6,146 nucleotides of DNA from a virus (taxonomy: Duplodnaviria > Heunggongvirae > Uroviricota > Caudoviricetes), in the IMG/VR virus record IMGVR_UViG_2645727970_000001, positions 1-6,146 of that record; one strand, written 5' to 3'. The notes beneath the pieces were generated by a model. That model was not told the origin of the DNA. It made no database searches and saw only the letters and a list, made by a program, of their open reading frames with translations. The position numbers and the translations under genes are program-made. Below, in pieces: positions 1 to 6,146 of the stretch. Numbering within the stretch: position 1 is the stretch's first letter; every line of letters starts with the position of its first letter.

Positions 1-29
1 TGGGTGTTTTATTAGTACGAATAAGCACT

Positions 30-57
30 GTGTATTCATTCCAACGAGTGAATACAC
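30..57. repeat. Perfect 9-bp inverted repeat (gtgtattca / tgaatacac) with 10-nt spacer; possible RNA hairpin or protein-binding site
   Basis: Positions 30-38 are the exact reverse complement of 49-57. No T-tract follows, so it is not a classic terminator. Confidence 0.4.
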
Positions 58-119
58 GGAGCAATGTCGCTCGTAACTAAACAGGAGCCGACTTGTTCTG
101 ATTATTGGAAATCTTCTTT

Positions 120-145
120 GCCCTCCAGTGTGAGGGCATTTTTTT
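120..145 (+). terminator. Rho-independent terminator-like hairpin upstream of the first ORF
   Basis: 6-bp GC-rich stem gccctc(120-125)/gagggc(132-137), loop cagtgt, followed by a run of seven T (139-145). Oriented for + strand transcription. Confidence 0.6.
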
Positions 146-157
146 GACGGAGGAAAT

Positions 158-469
158 ATGAAATTACGTGTCTGGCATATCCCGCAAGTTCCTATGAAGC
201 CGTTCATTGTAGAAGTGGCAAGTGTTGAAGAGGGTGTTCGCCTGATGGATGCACTGGCTGATTATGATGCCTTTCAGTATGACAACAATATCAAGCCTGA
301 CTACTGCAATGCTAACGGCCTTGAGATGTGGGATGAGAGCATTACTGATGAAGATTTATCAGAGATGGGGCTTACGGATCGCTGGGTAGATTGGTACAGC
401 GAATGCCAATGTTACGACGACCCACGTAAATATATCGAAAGCCTGAAAGAAGAAACCTCAGCAGCCTGA
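158..469 (+). CDS. Hypothetical small acidic prophage protein (103 aa)
   Basis: ORF with SD ggagg 6 nt upstream of ATG 158. Translation is D/E-rich (about 23 acidic against about 9 basic residues by my count) with several Trp/Tyr and 3 Cys. No family recognised. Confidence 0.7.
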   Translation: MKLRVWHIPQVPMKPFIVEVASVEEGVRLMDALADYDAFQYDNNIKPDYCNANGLEMWDESITDEDLSEMGLTDRWVDWYSECQCYDDPRKYIESLKEETSAA

Positions 470-504
470 GCGCGGATTTGACGCATACAAATTAAGGAGG
501 ATAT

Positions 505-1473
505 ATGAGTGAAGTAACAGATTTAGTTGTTATTGAAAAAGCAAATGCAATGACTGTATTTCAGTCTGCCGACCAGATTGAAGAAATCCTTCAAAAGGTT
601 GAACGTGAAGTTATGTCCTTTGTGCCTGATATCACAACGGCAAAGGGCAGAAAGGAGATCGCTTCTCTGGCGTATAAAGTTGCGCAGACGAAAACATATC
701 TCGATGGTCTTGGTAAAGACCTTGTTGCTGAACTGAAGGAAATTCCAAAGCTAATTGATGCTAACCGCAAGACAGTGCGCGATCGCCTTGATGAACTGAA
801 AGCCAAGGCGCGCCAGCCTCTTACTGATTATGAGGAAGAACAGGCGCGGATTAAAGCCGAAGAAGAAGCTAAGGCAGCAGCTGAAGCTCTCGCAAAGCAA
901 ATTGAGTCTGACCATGAAATAGCGATTTTGATGGATCGCGAATTTGACCGCCAAAGAGAAGAGGCAAGACTCAAAGCGGAGCAGGAAAAGCGAGAGCATG
1001 AAGAACGCTTAAAAAGAGAAGCTGAAGAGAAAGCCAGAGCAGAAGCCGAAGCAAAGGCAAAAGCCGAAATTGAAGCAGCAGCAAGGCGAGAAGCAGAAGC
1101 TAAGGCCGCAGCGGAACGTGCAGAGCGTGAACGCATTGAAGCCGAGCAACGAGCACAGCGCGAAGCAAAAGAGGCAGCAGAACGAGCTGAAAGAGAAAAG
1201 CAGGCGGCAATTGAAGCAGAACGCCGAAAAGCACAGGAGGAGGCTGAACGAATCCGGCGCGAGGCTGAAGCAAAAGAGCAAGCCAGAATAGCAGAAGAAA
1301 AAAGAATCAAGGACGAAGAAGAGCGCAGAGCAAAGGATAAAGCTCACCGGAAAGAAGTAAATAACAAAATACTTGCTGACCTTATCAAGGTTGGCGCATC
1401 AGAAGATGTTGCTAAAAATATCATAACAGCCATCGTAAAAGGCGAAGTATTCGCAACAAAAATAACCTACTAA
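505..1473 (+). CDS. Hypothetical phage protein with long central E/R/K/A-rich helical (coiled-coil or single alpha-helix) region, 322 aa
   Basis: Consensus SD taaggagg 7 nt upstream of ATG 505. N-terminal ~110 aa and C-terminal ~40 aa look globular; residues ~115-285 are low-complexity AEAKAKAE/ERAERE-type repeats. Opposite-strand ORFs across this span are repeat artefacts. Confidence 0.75.
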   Translation: MSEVTDLVVIEKANAMTVFQSADQIEEILQKVEREVMSFVPDITTAKGRKEIASLAYKVAQTKTYLDGLGKDLVAELKEIPKLIDANRKTVRDRLDELKAKARQPLTDYEEEQARIKAEEEAKAAAEALAKQIESDHEIAILMDREFDRQREEARLKAEQEKREHEERLKREAEEKARAEAEAKAKAEIEAAARREAEAKAAAERAERERIEAEQRAQREAKEAAERAEREKQAAIEAERRKAQEEAERIRREAEAKEQARIAEEKRIKDEEERRAKDKAHRKEVNNKILADLIKVGASEDVAKNIITAIVKGEVFATKITY

Positions 1474-1497
1474 TAAAACCAACATAAGGAACCACCC

Positions 1498-1629
1498 ATG
1501 ATTTACGCAATCGCGGGAGGCGCTCGCATGGGTGCCTTCCAACTAAATGAATCTTTACTTGAACGAATCACCCGTAAATTACGTGACGGATGGAAAAGAG
1601 TTGAGGTCTTATTATGCGCAATGAAATAG
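1498..1629 (+). CDS. cIII: CIII-like regulator (FtsH/HflB inhibitor that stabilises CII), short 43-aa form
   Basis: Not in the supplied ORF track (too short). ATG 1498 preceded by aagga. Translation MIYAIAGGARMGAFQLNESLLERITRKLRDGWKRVEVLLCAMK contains the ESLLERITRKLRDGWKR core that I recall from phage lambda CIII. The ORF ends earlier than lambda's 54 aa. Confidence 0.8.
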   Translation: MIYAIAGGARMGAFQLNESLLERITRKLRDGWKRVEVLLCAMK

Positions 1630-1766
1630 CCATCAATCACCAGATGCTTCGTGCTGCACAGAACAAAGCAGTAATAGCCAGATTTATTGGTGATTCCAAA
1701 ATGTGGCTTGAAGCAAATAAAGCGATGAAATCAGCTATCAACCTTCCGTGGTATCGCAGGAAATGA
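1614..1766 (+). CDS. kil: Kil-like small protein (candidate FtsZ/cell-division inhibitor), 50 aa
   Basis: Not in the ORF track. ATG 1614 lies inside the 3' end of cIII with gagg upstream. Translation MRNEIAINHQMLRAAQNKAVIARFIGDSKMWLEANKAMKSAINLPWYRRK has the FIGDxKMWxEA-type core I associate with lambda Kil / Rac KilR; position directly after cIII matches lambda gene order. Confidence 0.55.
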   Translation: MRNEIAINHQMLRAAQNKAVIARFIGDSKMWLEANKAMKSAINLPWYRRK

Positions 1767-1978
1767 GTTTTACAGATAACTGGTCAGACGAAGAATTCAT
1801 TCGTCAGATGAAAGAATTAATCGGTAACGAAGGAGATATTCATGTCACTTGCAACCACAGTGAAGGAGAGCAAGTTACAGAGACGCATGTACACGCAGAA
1901 AGCGCTAAGGTATCGCCAGAAGGGAGACCGCGAAGGAATGCGCGTATGCCTAAATGCGGCAAAGACTCGAAGTATTAA
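1763..1978 (+). CDS. Hypothetical small protein (71 aa from ATG 1763; track lists a GTG start at 1748)
   Basis: ATG 1763 overlaps the kil stop (aATGa), suggesting translational coupling. Acidic N-terminus, His/Cys-containing C-terminal half (HVTCNH...THVH...KCGK). Sits where gam/arf-type genes lie in lambda/P22-like phages but has no recognisable similarity. Confidence 0.55.
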   Translation: MSFTDNWSDEEFIRQMKELIGNEGDIHVTCNHSEGEQVTETHVHAESAKVSPEGRPRRNARMPKCGKDSKY

Positions 1979-2021
1979 ATCAGCGTTATTTCCTTGGGCC
2001 GTGTCCATTCTGAGGTGAATT

Positions 2022-2729
2022 ATGGATTTGAACAAATTCGATGAGCCATTCAGCCCTGAAGATATCGAATGGCGAATACAGCAAAGCGGTAAAACACGCG
2101 ATGGCAAGGTGTGGGCTATGGTGCTGGCTTATGTCACGAACAGGGCAATCATGAAACGCCTGGACGATGTTTGCGGCAAAGCAGGATGGCGCAATGAATA
2201 CCGCGATATTCCCAACAACGGAGGCGTTGAATGCGGCATATCAATAAAGATTGATTCCGAATGGGTAACCAAATGGGATGCTGCTGAAAACACGCAGGTA
2301 GAAGCCGTCAAAGGCGGTCGTTCCGGTGCAATGAAGCGCGCTGCCGTTCAGTGGGGAATCGGTCGGTATCTGTATAACCTTGAGGAAGGTTTCGCACAAA
2401 CATCTCTCGATAAAAAGCAGGGGTGGCACAGGGCAAAACTGAAGGATGGAACAGGATTTTACTGGCTCCCTCCATCGCTGCCGGGATGGGCAATCCCAGC
2501 ATCAGATAAAAAACCATCACCAGAAAATACCAACCAGAAATCTCCATCGGTTGACTGCGAACAAATCCTGAAAGACTTCAGCGATTATGCATCAACAGAA
2601 ACTGACAAGAAAAAACTCATCGAGCGTTATCAGCGTGACTGGCAATTAATGGCTGGCAACGAGGAGGCACAGGCTAAATGCGTTCAGGTAATGAACATCA
2701 GAGTTAACGAACTAAAACAGGCGGCATAA
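2022..2729 (+). CDS. Rad52/Rad22-family single-strand annealing protein (Sak-like phage recombinase), 235 aa
   Basis: SD gaggtga upstream of ATG 2022. Translation contains EAVKGGRSGAMKRAAVQWGIGRYLY, matching the conserved Rad52-family signature. Occupies the position of lambda bet. Confidence 0.8.
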   Translation: MDLNKFDEPFSPEDIEWRIQQSGKTRDGKVWAMVLAYVTNRAIMKRLDDVCGKAGWRNEYRDIPNNGGVECGISIKIDSEWVTKWDAAENTQVEAVKGGRSGAMKRAAVQWGIGRYLYNLEEGFAQTSLDKKQGWHRAKLKDGTGFYWLPPSLPGWAIPASDKKPSPENTNQKSPSVDCEQILKDFSDYASTETDKKKLIERYQRDWQLMAGNEEAQAKCVQVMNIRVNELKQAA

Positions 2730-3197
2730 ATGTCTCACTTGGACGGAATTATTAAAAGATTCGAGTCCAGCTACAAAGTTAATGAAACAACAGGTTGCTG
2801 GGAGTCTACCTATTCAAAAAACAAAGGAGGATACACAAAATTTGTAGCCTTTGGCGTAACAATGCTTTCTCATCGGGTTGCTTTTGAGCTTTATCACTCC
2901 CCCATTCCATCTGGGAAGATGGTTTGCCACAAATGCGATAACCCATGCTGCGTTAATCCTGAACATCTCTTTTTAGGTAGCGCGCAAGAAAACATGGACG
3001 ACAAGATAGCAAAAGGAAGGCATCGTGGAGCCAAGAAAGGTCATGCTCATCATGGTGCAAAATTAACAGAGTGGCAGGTTATAGAAATTAGGAAAAGACT
3101 CTCTGAAAAAGAGAGTCAGTACAAGATAGCAAAAGACATGGGTGTATCTCAATCAATTATAAGCAACATAAAAACTGGCAAGAGGTGGAGCAAATGA
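2730..3197 (+). CDS. HNH endonuclease (HNH_3-type, probable free-standing homing-type nuclease) with C-terminal helix-turn-helix-like region, 155 aa
   Basis: ATG 2730 directly abuts the upstream TAA (TAAATG). Motif [23 protein letters not shown] fits the H...C..C...N..H...N pattern of HNH nucleases. The coding sequence looks AT-richer than its neighbours by eye. Confidence 0.8.
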
Positions 3198-3700
3198 GTT
3201 CTCGCGGGATAAATAAGGTGATTATCCTTGGTCGGGTAGGACAAGACCCGGAAGTTCGATACTCACCATCAGGAACAGCGTTCGCTAACCTGACAATAGC
3301 CACGTCAGAACAATGGCGAGATAAAAATACTGGCGAGCAAAAGGAATTGACTGAATGGCATCGTGTTGCTGTATCCGGGAAACTGGCTGAGGTCGTGGGG
3401 CAGTATGTAAAAAAAGGTGATCAGATTTATTTCGAGGGAATGCTGAGAACCAGAAAGTGGAAAGACCAGTCAGGGCAAGACCGTTACACAACCGAGGTTC
3501 ATGTCGGAATTAATGGCGTGATGCAAATGCTTGGCGGCATTGGCGACAGCAAACAACAAGCAGCCAGCAGGCAATCACAGAAGCCACAGCAGCAATCATC
3601 ACCAGCACAACACAACGAACCTCCGATGGATTTTGACGACGACATACCCTTTGCACCAGTAACTCTCCCCTTCCCTCGTCACGCTATTCACGCAATTTAA
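3194..3700 (+). CDS. ssb: Single-stranded DNA-binding protein (phage-encoded SSB), 168 aa from ATG 3194
   Basis: N-terminus [23 protein letters not shown]...TEWHRV...[19 protein letters not shown] is close to E. coli SSB. ATG 3194 overlaps the HNH stop (aATGa); the track's GTG at 3185 is less likely. Q/S-rich linker then [11 protein letters not shown], but the frame continues 15 codons ([15 protein letters not shown]) before TAA. Confidence 0.95.
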
Positions 3701-3713
3701 TCAGGAGAAAAAC

Positions 3714-4010
3714 ATGCCAGCGCCTCTGTATGGTGCGGACGACGCACGCCGCTGTTCCGGCAATTCCGTATCGGAGGTGCTGGATAAATTCAGAAAAAAC
3801 TACGATCGGATAATGTCTCTACCGCAGGAAACGAAAGAGGAAAAGGAATTTCGCTATTGTATATGGCTTGCAGAGAAAGAAGAGCGCGAGCGAATTTACC
3901 AGACATCAATCCGACCATTCCGCAAAGCCACATATACCCACTTCCCTGAATATATCGACCCGCGCCTGCGTAATTACCGCTCACGCTATGGCGCTATCAG
4001 TAATGACTGA
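3714..4010 (+). CDS. Hypothetical prophage protein (98 aa)
   Basis: SD aggag 8 nt upstream of ATG 3714, 13 nt after the ssb stop. No recognisable motif; basic and Tyr/Arg-rich C-terminus. Confidence 0.65.
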
Positions 4011-4020
4011 GGAATTTACC

Positions 4021-4215
4021 ATGAGAGGACTTGCATACAATCCCGGCATTCTTCCGGCAGAAATGATTATTCGCCAACGCGTAAAGCCAATGCCATCGAG
4101 AGAGGAATTTCTTAAGAGAAATTCTTCTCCGTCAGTGAATCAAAACAAATATGTGACTGCTCCCCGCCCTGTCGGGCGAGGCTTCCCACTTCTCAGGCCG
4201 CAACCGTCTGTATGA
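4021..4215 (+). CDS. Small prophage ORF (64 aa as read) whose 3' part runs into the IS right end and tnpB; probably truncated or fused by the insertion
   Basis: SD tgagga 8 nt upstream of ATG 4021, 10 nt after the previous stop. The track's longer form (3868..4215) overlaps the 98-aa ORF and is unlikely. From about 4145 onward the sequence is IS-derived, so the native C-terminus is unknown. Confidence 0.35.
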
Positions 4216-4300
4216 CGGATTTACGCTGGCCTCCATGGGCAGAGACGACGTGTCCCGCCGCCTTTAGCTCCAGTATTCCTTTTTGCCGGATATTGAGTGC
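4125..4300 (-). ncRNA. Putative TnpB guide RNA (omega/reRNA) spanning the 3' end of tnpB, the IS right end and adjacent flank (predicted, not directly visible)
   Basis: Inferred from established TnpB biology: the guide RNA derives from the tnpB 3' end plus right end, with the guide read from flanking DNA. Only the hairpin at 4162-4181 is seen directly; extent is a guess. Confidence 0.3.
4162..4181. repeat. Subterminal imperfect palindrome of the IS, tnpB-proximal (right end)
   Basis: ccccgccc-tgtc-gggcgagg: 5-bp cgccc/gggcg stem with a conserved C/A mismatch, flanked by ct...ttc. Near-identical to the hairpin at 5887-5907. Confidence 0.65.
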
Positions 4301-5368
4301 TGCATTGATATCCCGGTCATGTTCAATACCGCATTCAGGGCATCGCCAGATGCGTTTATGAAGTGGCATTTCCGGCATCTTGTAACCACAACAATGGCAG
4401 GTTTTCGAACTGGCAAACCACTGGTCGAGTTTTACCAGGTGAACGCCTTTTTCTGCTGCCTTGTACTCCAGCTTTACGATGAAGCTGTGCCAGCCCGCAT
4501 CACCTATCGCTCTTGCCAGATTGTGGTTTTTCATCATGTTGGCTGTTTTCAGCGTCTCGACAATTACCGCTTGGTTTTCGTCAACAATTGCACGAGAAAG
4601 TTTGTGTTGAAAATCAGCACGGGCATTGGCAACCCGTTCGTGTAACGCAGCCAGTCGGATTCTGGCCTTTTTACGGTTCGCGCTTCCCTTTTGTTTGCGG
4701 GATAGCGCTTTTTGTTTGCGTCGCAGATTACGGCTGGCATTGATGAGATGACGAGGATTCGGAGCTTTTCCCCCATCAGACATGATGACATAGTGCTCAA
4801 GCCCCATATCCACACCAGTAATCTTTTCTTCCTCCAGATACGCTGGTTTCTCTGGTGTGGGAATACCGTCTTCACAAAGGATAGATGCGTAGTATTTCCC
4901 GGTGGCACTGCGAGTGATTGTTATGCTCCTCACTTTTCCCGCCATTACACGGTGTATACGCGTTTCTATCGGTGCCAGCTTAGGAATTTTGATGGCATTC
5001 TCCAGTACTTTAATCCCGACACAATGGTAGCTCGATTGCTTCCCATGTTTACGTTTAAACGTCGGGAATCGTGCTTTCAGCTTCGGATTAAAAAAGTTGG
5101 AAAACGCCACATCAAGATTAATCACCGCCTGTTGCAATGCCATTGAATCAAATTCTTTAAGCCAGGCATACCTGCGGGACTTCTTCGCCACAGACAACAA
5201 CGGTTTTAAATCTTTACGCGGACGTAAATTCACTCCGTGTCGCTGGTAAGCGTGTTTTTTGATGTTAAGAGCTTTGTTGTATGCAAAACGTACCGCACCG
5301 AACTGGGCATTGAGATACTCAGCCTGTTCGGTAGTGGGATATATGCGTACTTTTGTCGCTCTTAACAT
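4193..5368 (-). CDS. tnpB: TnpB (IS200/IS605 OrfB; RuvC-like RNA-guided endonuclease), 391 aa
   Basis: Translation shows a split RuvC fold with candidate catalytic residues in GVDMGLEHY (D), AVIVETLK (E) and [10 protein letters not shown] (D), plus a CxxC...CxxC zinc finger (CHCCGYK...CPECG). Full length with ATG start. Confidence 0.9.
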
Positions 5369-5412
5369 ACTCAGCGCTCATTGATATTATTCAATTATTT
5401 TAACAAATTGAG

Positions 5413-5850
5413 GTGATTTTTCAATTGAGCGAACAACATGAATCTCTTGAAGGCTTCCTTCGGAAGCGTCACAGTGTGAGCAAGCTCGTAGTACATTTAA
5501 TTTTCACGACAAAGTATCGCAGAAAACTTTTTGACGGATGCATGATAGAGCAACTACGGGAAGCTTTTTGTTCCGCCGCAGCAAAACTTGAATGCGAAAT
5601 TCTTGAAATGGACGGTGAGACAGATCATGTGCATCTGTTGGTTGCTTATCCGCCCAAACTGGCAGTCAGCGTCATGGTGAATAATTTGAAATCAGTATCG
5701 TCACGTTTGCTGTGCCAGCAAAACACACATTTACGAACACAGAGCAAAACAGGCTTGCTTTGGTCAAGATCCTACTTTGCATGTAGTGCCGGAGGTGCGA
5801 CGATAGAAACGCTCAGAACTTACGTTCAAAGCCAGTCAACGCCGGAATGA
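5413..5850 (+). CDS. tnpA: TnpA, IS200-type Y1 (HuH) transposase; translation probably starts at TTG 5425 rather than GTG 5413
   Basis: KYRRKLF near the N-terminus, HuH motif DHVHLLV, catalytic-type Tyr in LRTYVQSQ and LWSRSYF...GGA match the IS200 TnpA pattern. No in-frame ATG; GAGGTGA (5410-5416) sits 8 nt before TTG 5425. Divergent from tnpB across 44 bp. Confidence 0.85.
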   Translation: MIFQLSEQHESLEGFLRKRHSVSKLVVHLIFTTKYRRKLFDGCMIEQLREAFCSAAAKLECEILEMDGETDHVHLLVAYPPKLAVSVMVNNLKSVSSRLLCQQNTHLRTQSKTGLLWSRSYFACSAGGATIETLRTYVQSQSTPE

Positions 5851-5857
5851 TTTTTTT

Positions 5858-5875
5858 AAAGCCCTTCGGGCTTTT
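5858..5875 (+). other. Perfect 7-bp hairpin with TTCG loop just after the tnpA stop, inside the IS left end
   Basis: aaagccc-ttcg-gggcttt, preceded by seven T. Only a weak T-run follows, so it may be a structural or transposition-related element rather than a strong terminator. Confidence 0.4.
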
Positions 5876-5886
5876 CCGCCTTTCCT

Positions 5887-5907
5887 CCCCGCCCGCATTG
5901 GGCGAGG
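5887..5907. repeat. Subterminal imperfect palindrome of the IS, tnpA-proximal (left end)
   Basis: ccccgccc-gcatt-gggcgagg: same stem and same C/A mismatch as 4162-4181, same orientation, about 1.7 kb away. Confidence 0.65.
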
Positions 5908-5928
5908 GTTCTCGGCGGTTGTTTGCTG

Positions 5929-5953
5929 AACTCGCTACGGCGAGTTTTGTTTT
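5929..5953 (+). terminator. Terminator-like hairpin at or just outside the IS left boundary
   Basis: 7-bp stem aactcgc/gcgagtt with tacg loop, followed by a T-rich tail (ttgtttt). Oriented for the + strand; could terminate tnpA read-out or belong to the phage. Confidence 0.45.
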
Positions 5954-5966
5954 ATGGAGATGATAA

Positions 5967-6134
5967 ATGCACTTTCGAGTCACAGGTGAATGGAATGGAG
6001 AACAATTCAACAGAGTTATCGAAGCAGAGAACATCAATGACTGCTATGACCACTGGATGATATGGGCGCAGATAGCCCATGCAGACGTAACCAATATTCG
6101 AATTGAAGAACTGAAAGAACACCAAGCCGCCTGA
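5967..6134 (+). CDS. Hypothetical small prophage protein (55 aa)
   Basis: Not in the ORF track. ATG 5967 with ggag 7 nt upstream; translation MHFRVTGEWNGEQFNRVIEAENINDCYDHWMIWAQIAHADVTNIRIEELKEHQAA. Stop codon lies in the loop of the following terminator. Confidence 0.5.
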   Translation: MHFRVTGEWNGEQFNRVIEAENINDCYDHWMIWAQIAHADVTNIRIEELKEHQAA

Positions 6135-6146
6135 TGGCGGTTTTTT
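6127..6146 (+). terminator. Rho-independent terminator at the end of the + strand gene array
   Basis: Stem ccgcc(6127-6131)/ggcgg(6136-6140), loop TGAT, then six T to the window edge. Confidence 0.6.

Follow-up and report, generated by a model that had tools for sequence, protein, structure and literature searches.

The DNA analysed here (the window) is the 6,146-bp virus record IMGVR_UViG_2645727970_000001 of IMG/VR, which is the whole of draft contig JHSX01000060.1 from Escherichia coli assembly GCA_001266195.1; its plus strand is the early-left region of a lambdoid/P22-like E. coli prophage. Positions 4153–5925 hold an insertion sequence (IS) of the IS200/IS605 family that, judged from its sequence, is complete, autonomous and apparently intact, and is related to, yet distinct from, ISEc46. 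This IS probably marks a deletion of the phage DNA between two TTCAG sites on the same strand, one upstream of a gene for a 55-amino-acid (aa) protein and one inside a phage DUF2737 gene, rather than standing in a phage joint that existed before it arrived. The occurrence of a tnpA/tnpB element here is far above chance, its two proteins already appear in public records under the names TnpB and IS200/IS605 transposase, and how this family works is established knowledge, so the element itself is routine; interest rests on the deletion-junction pattern, on a retargeted transposon-associated motif (TAM) and on a predicted phage-directed guide.

Ends of the element and its junctions with phage DNA

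The ends were placed by comparing four independent copies, namely the window copy, a 100% identical copy in another E. coli strain (called L006, below) and two copies of 90.6% identity, one on plasmid pGF60-C and one in the chromosomal norW gene. All four align with each other, start directly after a flanking TTCAG and finish at ...GGGGAGCAGTCAC (window position 4153). In addition, the 248 nt at the right end (RE) were compared by BLAST with 80 loci that encode TnpB relatives (57–81% aa identity) from genera that include Photorhabdus, Serratia, Aeromonas, Vibrio, Shewanella, Idiomarina and Halomonas, and in about 50 of the 80, all from other genera, homology is lost exactly after GTCAC (...CAGTCAC) with unrelated sequence beyond. 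At the left end (LE), homology to phage HK022 picks up again at window position 5926. A preliminary description of this DNA had recognized a complete IS605-type element with tnpA and tnpB at 4143–5928; its Pfam domains, ends and hairpins bear this out and it is indeed a discrete element, with true ends 10 and 3 nt away at 4153 and 5925. Read along the window minus strand, its parts are LE, tnpA (reversed), tnpB and RE, and the features of its two ends are as follows:

4153–5925, minus strand (the top strand of the element): IS200/IS605-family element, 1,773 bp; ends from four independent copies and about 50 relatives
5926–5930, minus strand: flanking target and predicted TAM, 5'-TTCAG (CTGAA on the plus strand); phage DNA outside the element
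5907–5925, minus strand: LE spacer of 19 nt, CAAACAACCGCCGAGAACC, between the LE hairpin and the cleavage site
5885–5906, minus strand: LE subterminal imperfect hairpin, CTCGCCC-AATGC-GGGCGGGGAG; comparison of copies
4160–4180, minus strand: RE subterminal imperfect hairpin, CTCGCCC-GACA-GGGCGGGGAG; comparison of copies and stem covariation
4159–4153, minus strand: terminal CAGTCAC, the 7 nt after the RE hairpin

The arms CTCGCCC and GGGCGGGGAG are common to the LE and RE hairpins, both on the minus strand, and the RE stem covaries across genera. The element has the arrangement by which IS200/IS605 members are recognized, same-strand subterminal imperfect hairpins at both ends and no terminal inverted repeats.

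The phage DNA on the two sides of the element consists of the following:

4021–4152, plus strand: truncated phage DUF2737 gene (Pfam DUF2737 positions 1–47 of 53; comparison with HK022)
5926–6134, plus strand: LE-side phage flank, with a terminator-like hairpin at 5928–5947 and the 55-aa open reading frame (ORF) at 5967–6134, which has homologues in phages lambda, 434 and HK022

The small phage ORF at whose 3' end the insertion had originally been placed is the DUF2737 gene, as found here; it lacks its final 10 codons (LNAMWRSGKK in HK022), and its frame continues into the IS to 4215, which adds 21 IS-encoded codons. In the HK022 DUF2737 gene the RE flank reads ...CAAAACAAATAT/CTGAA/TGCGATG... 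(strokes mark joints), that is, TTCAG followed by the guide sequence (below) on the minus strand, and the HK022 joint on this side is ...AAATAT/CTGAA. The HK022 counterpart of the LE flank, CTGAA-CTCGCTACGG..., is found 1.77 kb further along that genome; it lies in a terminator-like hairpin that precedes the 55-aa ORF, and HK022 there reads TTTTAT/CTGAA/CTCGC. These two TTCAG sites are 1,030–4,527 bp apart, and never adjacent, in 39 of the 39 IMG/VR viral contigs that hold both. Since each flank derives from a TTCAG site of its own, simple insertion does not account for the locus; the earlier word "inserted" holds for a discrete element with exact ends and fails for its surroundings, which do not rebuild one phage site.

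The comparison with an uninterrupted copy that had been proposed at the outset was run for the window locus and gave no matching empty site in the collections searched. Phages HK022, N7 and Sf6 were considered as uninterrupted copies and rejected, since 1.7–2.5 kb of other genes lie between the flanks in them. The chimeric empty site that was sought is ...CAAAACAAATAT-CTGAA-CTCGCTACGG..., with CAAAACAAATATCTGAACTCGCTACGG as the IS-free joint; the hypothetical site-A and site-B intermediates would read TTTCTTTTAT/GTGACTGCTCCCC and GGTTGTTTG/CTGAATGCGATG, respectively (both plus strand). A degenerate pattern for the occupied or empty junction had 0 matches in viral contigs and in GTDB species-representative genomes, the exact empty-site pattern had 0 matches in metagenome contigs, and megablast of the joined flanks against complete E. 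coli genomes found no empty site, only two partial cases in which additional DNA separates the flanks. Such a chimeric empty site would deprive DUF2737 of its normal conserved C-terminus and stop codon.

The 100% identical copy (L006 positions 4966–6738 in contig AAZSPT010000061.1 of assembly GCA_017717815.1; 1,779 of 1,779 nt) has antirestriction and ParA/ParB genes nearby, in the leading region of an IncF-like plasmid, and its presence in another strain and on another replicon points to recent mobility. Here too the flanks come from two sites. In plasmid CP099183, the TTCAG at which the LE flank ends is followed 2,167 bp downstream by a second TTCAG; the RE flank starts immediately behind this second TTCAG, its native neighbour in CP099183, and relative to that plasmid the intervening ~2.2 kb is missing. 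No contiguous empty site for the L006 locus was present in PLSDB. As a positive control, the IS was deleted in silico from the two 90.6% relatives with one TTCAG kept. The resulting norW sequence runs uninterrupted at 100% in E. coli (with matches to the query in 5,426 of 5,426 genomes, and at ≥99% in 4,035 records), and the reconstructed plasmid site, in a DUF4406 gene, does so in four plasmids, and at ≥90% in 54. These clean empty sites, each with one TTCAG, indicate for this lineage the behaviour expected of the family: insertion 3' of TTCAG and no duplication of the target. The exact IS of the window thus marks a two-site TTCAG deletion in both of its two copies, and its 90.6% relatives are clean insertions.

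The tnpA and tnpB genes and the predicted guide RNA

The genes, promoter-like sites and RNA features of the element are the following:

5425–5850, plus strand: tnpA, 141 aa, Y1 HUH transposase, TTG start; Pfam and structure alignment
5424–5397, minus strand: promoter-like TTGAAA-16-TAAAAT, facing tnpB; consensus match
5362–5390, plus strand: promoter-like TTAACA-17-TATTAT, facing tnpA; consensus match
4193–5368, minus strand: tnpB, 391 aa, RNA-guided-nuclease family; Pfam and alignment with ISDra2
4153–4321, minus strand: predicted omega-RNA (reRNA) scaffold, across the tnpB 3' end and RE; covariation
4263–4243, minus strand: supported helix; covariation
4239–4185, minus strand: supported helix with inner stems 4231–4196 and 4218–4204; covariation
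4181–4162, minus strand: supported helix, the RE hairpin; covariation
4137–4152, minus strand: predicted 16-nt guide, 5'-ATATTTGTTTTGATTC; from the RE end and the ISDra2 precedent (a 20-nt guide would reach 4133)

Both proteins retain the residues on which their family chemistry depends, as the preliminary description had proposed. TnpB has the Pfam domains HTH_OrfB_IS605, OrfB_IS605 and Cas12f1-like_TNB (E-values of 1e-19 to 1e-26), and its residues 4–381 align with the TnpB of ISDra2 (PDB 8EXA/8H1J) at an E-value of 2e-79. In this alignment D187, E271 and D353 fall on the ISDra2 RuvC residues D191, E278 and D361, of which D191 is experimentally essential for cleavage; there is no catalytic substitution, and all four zinc-finger cysteines (324, 327, 343 and 346; CxxC...CxxC) are kept. 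TnpA matches Pfam Y1_Tnp at an E-value of 1.5e-37, and its H68 and H70 (DHVHL) and Y133 align with the HUH motif and the tyrosine of IS608 and other TnpA structures. The listed tnpA ORF is 5413–5850; its likely start is the TTG at 5425 behind GAGGTG, which gives 141 aa, the same length as RefSeq tnpA (a 426-nt coding sequence) in the two 90.6% relatives (L002 and L003). A reading of this TnpB as a nuclease-dead, TldR-like protein was rejected, since the element has kept its catalytic triad, its tnpA and its two ends, whereas a protein of that type would have lost the RuvC catalytic residues and would stand without tnpA and transposon ends. Prophage TnpB derivatives of the nuclease-dead TldR type are described in PMC10705468.

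The ratio of nonsynonymous to synonymous substitution rates (dN/dS) for tnpB is 0.15 against the 90.6% relative and 0.07 against ISEc46, and for tnpA it is 0.04 and 0.03, respectively, so both genes are under long-term purifying selection in this lineage. To judge from the intact motifs, these dN/dS values of 0.03–0.15 and the 100% identical copy elsewhere, the element looks active. The two divergent promoter-like matches are the only ones in the region, and they sit at the 56-bp spacer between tnpA and tnpB, a placement that fits.

A conserved structured RNA is encoded at the tnpB 3' end and RE. Nucleotide-level similarity in distant relatives begins near 4321, about 170 nt before RE, and this part is far better kept than the remainder of tnpB. 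The RNAalifold consensus of a 45-sequence alignment has 35 pairs, of which 18 show compensatory double changes. In the alignment 97.4% of cells are paired (83.3% in shuffled and 34–54% in slid controls) and 202 cells carry double changes (57 shuffled, 9–37 slid), and none of 500 shuffles reached the observed values of cells paired, double changes or covariation score. For the window sequence by itself, the minimum free energy fold reproduces the helices (z of -2.9).

For ISDra2 the precedent is an RNA of ~150 nt plus ~16 nt of flank, with a TAM that equals the TnpA target. Since RE ends at 4153 and ISDra2 takes ~16 nt of flank, the guide segment is predicted to be 4152–4137 and its TAM to be TTCAG. 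The logic by which a guide had first been sought in the flank just outside RE therefore stands, and its position, given as about 4145–4125, moves by 7–10 nt. TTCAG followed by this 16-mer has exact matches in at least 120 viral contigs, where it belongs to the intact DUF2737 genes of related phages.

Target code, relatives and the surrounding prophage

Of eight independent copies of the window type, seven have TTCAG directly before LE and one has ATCAG; in ISEc46 and some 40 relatives that are further removed (among loci L011–L094) this place is taken by TTAG. Immediately 5' of the 8-bp LE stem, the window type (target TCAG) has the tetranucleotide GAAC and the TTAG type AAAC, and at RE a GAAG lies 5' of the hairpin and the predicted cleavage site is TCAC. 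As a sequence pattern, the pairs GAAC/TCAG (LE) and GAAG/TCAC (RE) parallel the published IS608 guide/cleavage pairs AAAG/TTAC and GAAT/TCAA. The T to C change in the target is accompanied by an A to G change in the putative LE guide tetranucleotide, and we read this as a probable natural retargeting event (TTAG to TCAG) within the clade. TTCAG occurs 26 times in the phage DNA of the window (1–4152 and 5926–6146), 19 times on the minus and seven times on the plus strand, and this bias gives many more potential targets or TAMs for the present orientation of the element.

Comparison with catalogued IS200/IS605 members, also proposed at the outset, was run and gave ISEc46 as the nearest named element. 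The two share the divergent tnpA/tnpB layout, a similar length (~1.76 kb) with alignment from end to end, an identical RE terminus (...GGGGAGCAGTCAC) and identical hairpin arms, but they are only 78.3% identical in nucleotide sequence over their full length (TnpB 83% and TnpA 86.5% in aa), and ISEc46 copies are preceded by TTAG (CTTAG) and have AAAC where the window element has TTCAG and GAAC. By ISfinder practice, copies of the same IS should be about 95% identical or more in nucleotide sequence. The 78.3% identity and the TTCAG rather than TTAG target led us to reject the window element as ISEc46 itself, which is present in about 456 complete E. coli genomes.

ISDra2 of Deinococcus radiodurans resembles the window element in its D-E-D triad, zinc finger, structured RNA at the tnpB 3' end and RE, flank-derived guide and a TAM equal to the transposase target (the last two predicted here), but its TAM is TTGAT rather than the predicted TTCAG, and the guide RNA sequences are unrelated enough that no Rfam model matches. 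IS608 of Helicobacter pylori resembles it in a TnpA that aligns at an E-value of 6e-20 with HUH and tyrosine kept, in a 19-nt spacer between LE cleavage site and hairpin and, as far as the sequence goes, in the tetranucleotide pattern described above, and differs in its target (TTAC) and in low sequence identity. IS605 genes are divergent, as are those of the window element, whereas IS608 genes are co-oriented.

Derivatives that lack tnpA (88 nt of LE joined to tnpB and RE, 89–94% identity) occur widely, on P1-like phage-plasmids from E. coli, E. albertii, Salmonella and Klebsiella, for example in phage RCS47 and in pLH10-b-1-B (L095). They share the LE guide region and a (T/A)TCAG target with the window copy, but without tnpA they are non-autonomous whereas the window copy is complete. 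On the listed P1-like plasmids (pLH10-b-1-B and others) these tnpA-less copies adjoin a late promoter-activating protein gene. Among complete genomes and PLSDB plasmids, no full-length copy of more than 90.7% identity was found. Smaller relics also occur. One IMG/VR contig (L224, positions 37–90) carries a ~50-nt LE/RE hybrid hairpin, TTCAG/CAAAC...CTCGCCCAATGCGGGCGGGGAGCAGTCAC/, at a phage site where another (L220, 1326–2661) has a tnpA-less copy; this hybrid may be the scar left when the two end hairpins recombined. Solo 38-nt RE remnants of 100% identity lie on several 90–125-kb E. coli plasmids, and they probably account for most of the 99 records of ≥99% identity.

The early-left genes on the window plus strand include gp17, a 322-aa charged ORF, cIII, kil, an Erf/Rad52-type recombinase, an HNH endonuclease, a single-strand binding protein (SSB), Abc2 and DUF2737. 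The HNH endonuclease gene (2730–3197; HNH_3 plus a helix-turn-helix domain) is free-standing, lies between erf/Rad52 and ssb and overlaps both. In L004, a 98%-similar prophage, 13 nt replace window 2733–3209, by which the HNH gene looks like a discrete insertion of the homing-endonuclease type. The 322-aa ORF (505–1473) has a long, coiled-coil-like middle rich in Glu, Ala, Lys and Arg and no Pfam match; several long antisense ORFs over this interval are due to its biased composition (AT skew up to 0.76).

Alternative accounts, proposed mechanism and significance

Taken as a whole, the best explanation is very likely that of an autonomous IS200/IS605 element, with a TnpA/TnpB mechanism drawn from homology, at a probable deletion junction. 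The junctions fall exactly at transposase cleavage positions, which favours as the most likely cause of the deletion either TnpA-catalysed joining of RE to a second TTCAG or recombination between copies at both sites, two routes that the sequence cannot separate. Repair of a TnpB-made break was set aside as the cause, since junctions exactly 3' of TTCAG and exact IS ends suit TnpA chemistry or recombination between copies. Several points weigh against this overall explanation. The deletion is deduced from relatives and not from the true parent phage, in a region that is highly mosaic and in a window that is a short draft contig. Prophage L004 (NZ_OZ040950.1, 2501–2720) has its own IS-free DUF2737 truncation with the 55-aa ORF ~130 nt later, and the interval is a deletion hot spot in these phages. 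No published IS200/IS605 adjacent deletions were found in the literature searched. As to expression and the guide RNA, the promoter-like sites are consensus matches only, in a number not above shuffle expectation; a 3-pair long-range helix (4312–4310 with 4157–4155) was discounted, as it coincides with the codon of the catalytic Asp353 and so has no independent support; and Rfam gave no match at E ≤ 1 over the whole window, the guide RNA included, which places that RNA outside every curated family.

The hot spot and the mosaicism lend themselves to another history, in which illegitimate recombination at the octamer TATCTGAA in an ancestral phage joined DUF2737 to the DNA ahead of the 55-aa ORF and the IS was later inserted in the normal way 3' of the TTCAG so formed. 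Both parental sites do share TATCTGAA, 3 nt more than the target needs, and the L004 prophage shows that an IS-free deletion inside DUF2737 can occur. We nonetheless think this history unlikely. Its IS-free form did not turn up in complete E. coli genomes or in the collections of viral, genome and metagenome sequences that were searched, it would have left DUF2737 without conserved C-terminus and stop codon, and with 26 TTCAG sites in the phage flanks the chance of hitting this particular one is about 1 in 20 to 1 in 26. The coincidence would also have to recur, as L006 has the two-site pattern in unrelated plasmid DNA and the 90.6% relatives are clean. An assembly artefact, in which two IS copies, one at each TTCAG site, were collapsed between the outer flanks so that there is no real deletion, must be weighed for a 6,146-bp draft contig with a 1.8-kb IS that exceeds short reads, the more so as window 3645–6146 (the last 2,502 nt) is repeated at 100% identity at the end of 187-kb contig JHSX01000003.1 of the same assembly. 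That repeat is assembly redundancy and not a biological repeat; outside it, JHSX01000003.1 encodes a phage integrase and a member of the pectinesterase family (Pfam PF01095). The 187-kb contig crosses the entire IS into the abc2 side, and independent short-read assemblies of other samples (L009 and L010, 99.9% identical) are unbroken across both IS boundaries with the same flanks, whereas contigs would be expected to stop at the IS ends if there were two alternative flanks. With both boundaries spanned by two independent assemblies and the 187-kb contig, we regard misassembly as very unlikely.

Of a different kind is the suggestion that the locus is as described but the copy is silent or decaying, with tnpB or the guide RNA unexpressed and the intact motifs merely a reflection of recent arrival. 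The tnpB gene is antisense to phage early-left transcription, many relatives on P1-like plasmids lack tnpA and others have been reduced to end scars of 38–50 nt, all of which fits such a copy. But both ORFs are full length with all their catalytic residues, both ends and hairpins are intact, an identical copy exists in a different replicon and strain and the lineage has been under long-term purifying selection, and we give a silent copy only a small chance of being correct.

For the autonomous element at a deletion junction, homology suggests the following course. TnpA would bind both subterminal hairpins on the single-stranded top strand (window minus strand) and cut 3' of the flanking TTCAG at LE and 3' of ...GTCAC at RE, after which the element would be released as a circle of single-stranded DNA and insert again on the 3' side of another TTCAG, with no duplication of the target. 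TnpB, again by homology, would bind an RNA of about 4321–4153 (minus strand) plus ~16 nt of flank (4152–4137), and the complex would cut DNA in which TTCAG is followed by ATATTTGTTTTGATTC; its targets would be the donor joint left by excision, GAGTTCAG/ATATTTG..., and the intact DUF2737 of related phages, and the TnpB break would provoke recombinational re-copying of the element. Transposition, guide transcript and DNA cleavage are all things that we infer in this way for the window copy. Joining of RE to a second TTCAG would use the same half-reaction as integration. It is conceivable, if rather improbable, that one-ended TnpA events of this sort join RE 3' of a second TTCAG, deleting the adjacent DNA and re-programming the TnpB guide, and that TnpB of the prophage could then cut superinfecting relatives. 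If true, such events would explain why both 100% identical copies are at two-site deletion junctions, and the outcome would be exclusion of superinfecting phages or homing of the IS, with its deletion, into them; an effect of the guide on superinfection or on IS spread is at this stage speculation.

The ends, the target or predicted TAM and the predicted guide RNA, as set out above, are now defined for an ISEc46-related enterobacterial TnpB lineage that is uncharacterised in the literature searched, where we found no paper on ISEc46 TnpB biochemistry or on a TTCAG TAM. If TnpA causes the deletions, this would be a rearrangement activity that we did not find described for the family, and a route by which a TnpB guide could be re-programmed. 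Were TnpB functional in this lysogen, its guide would direct it at DUF2737, which is conserved in many competing lambdoid/P22-like phages.

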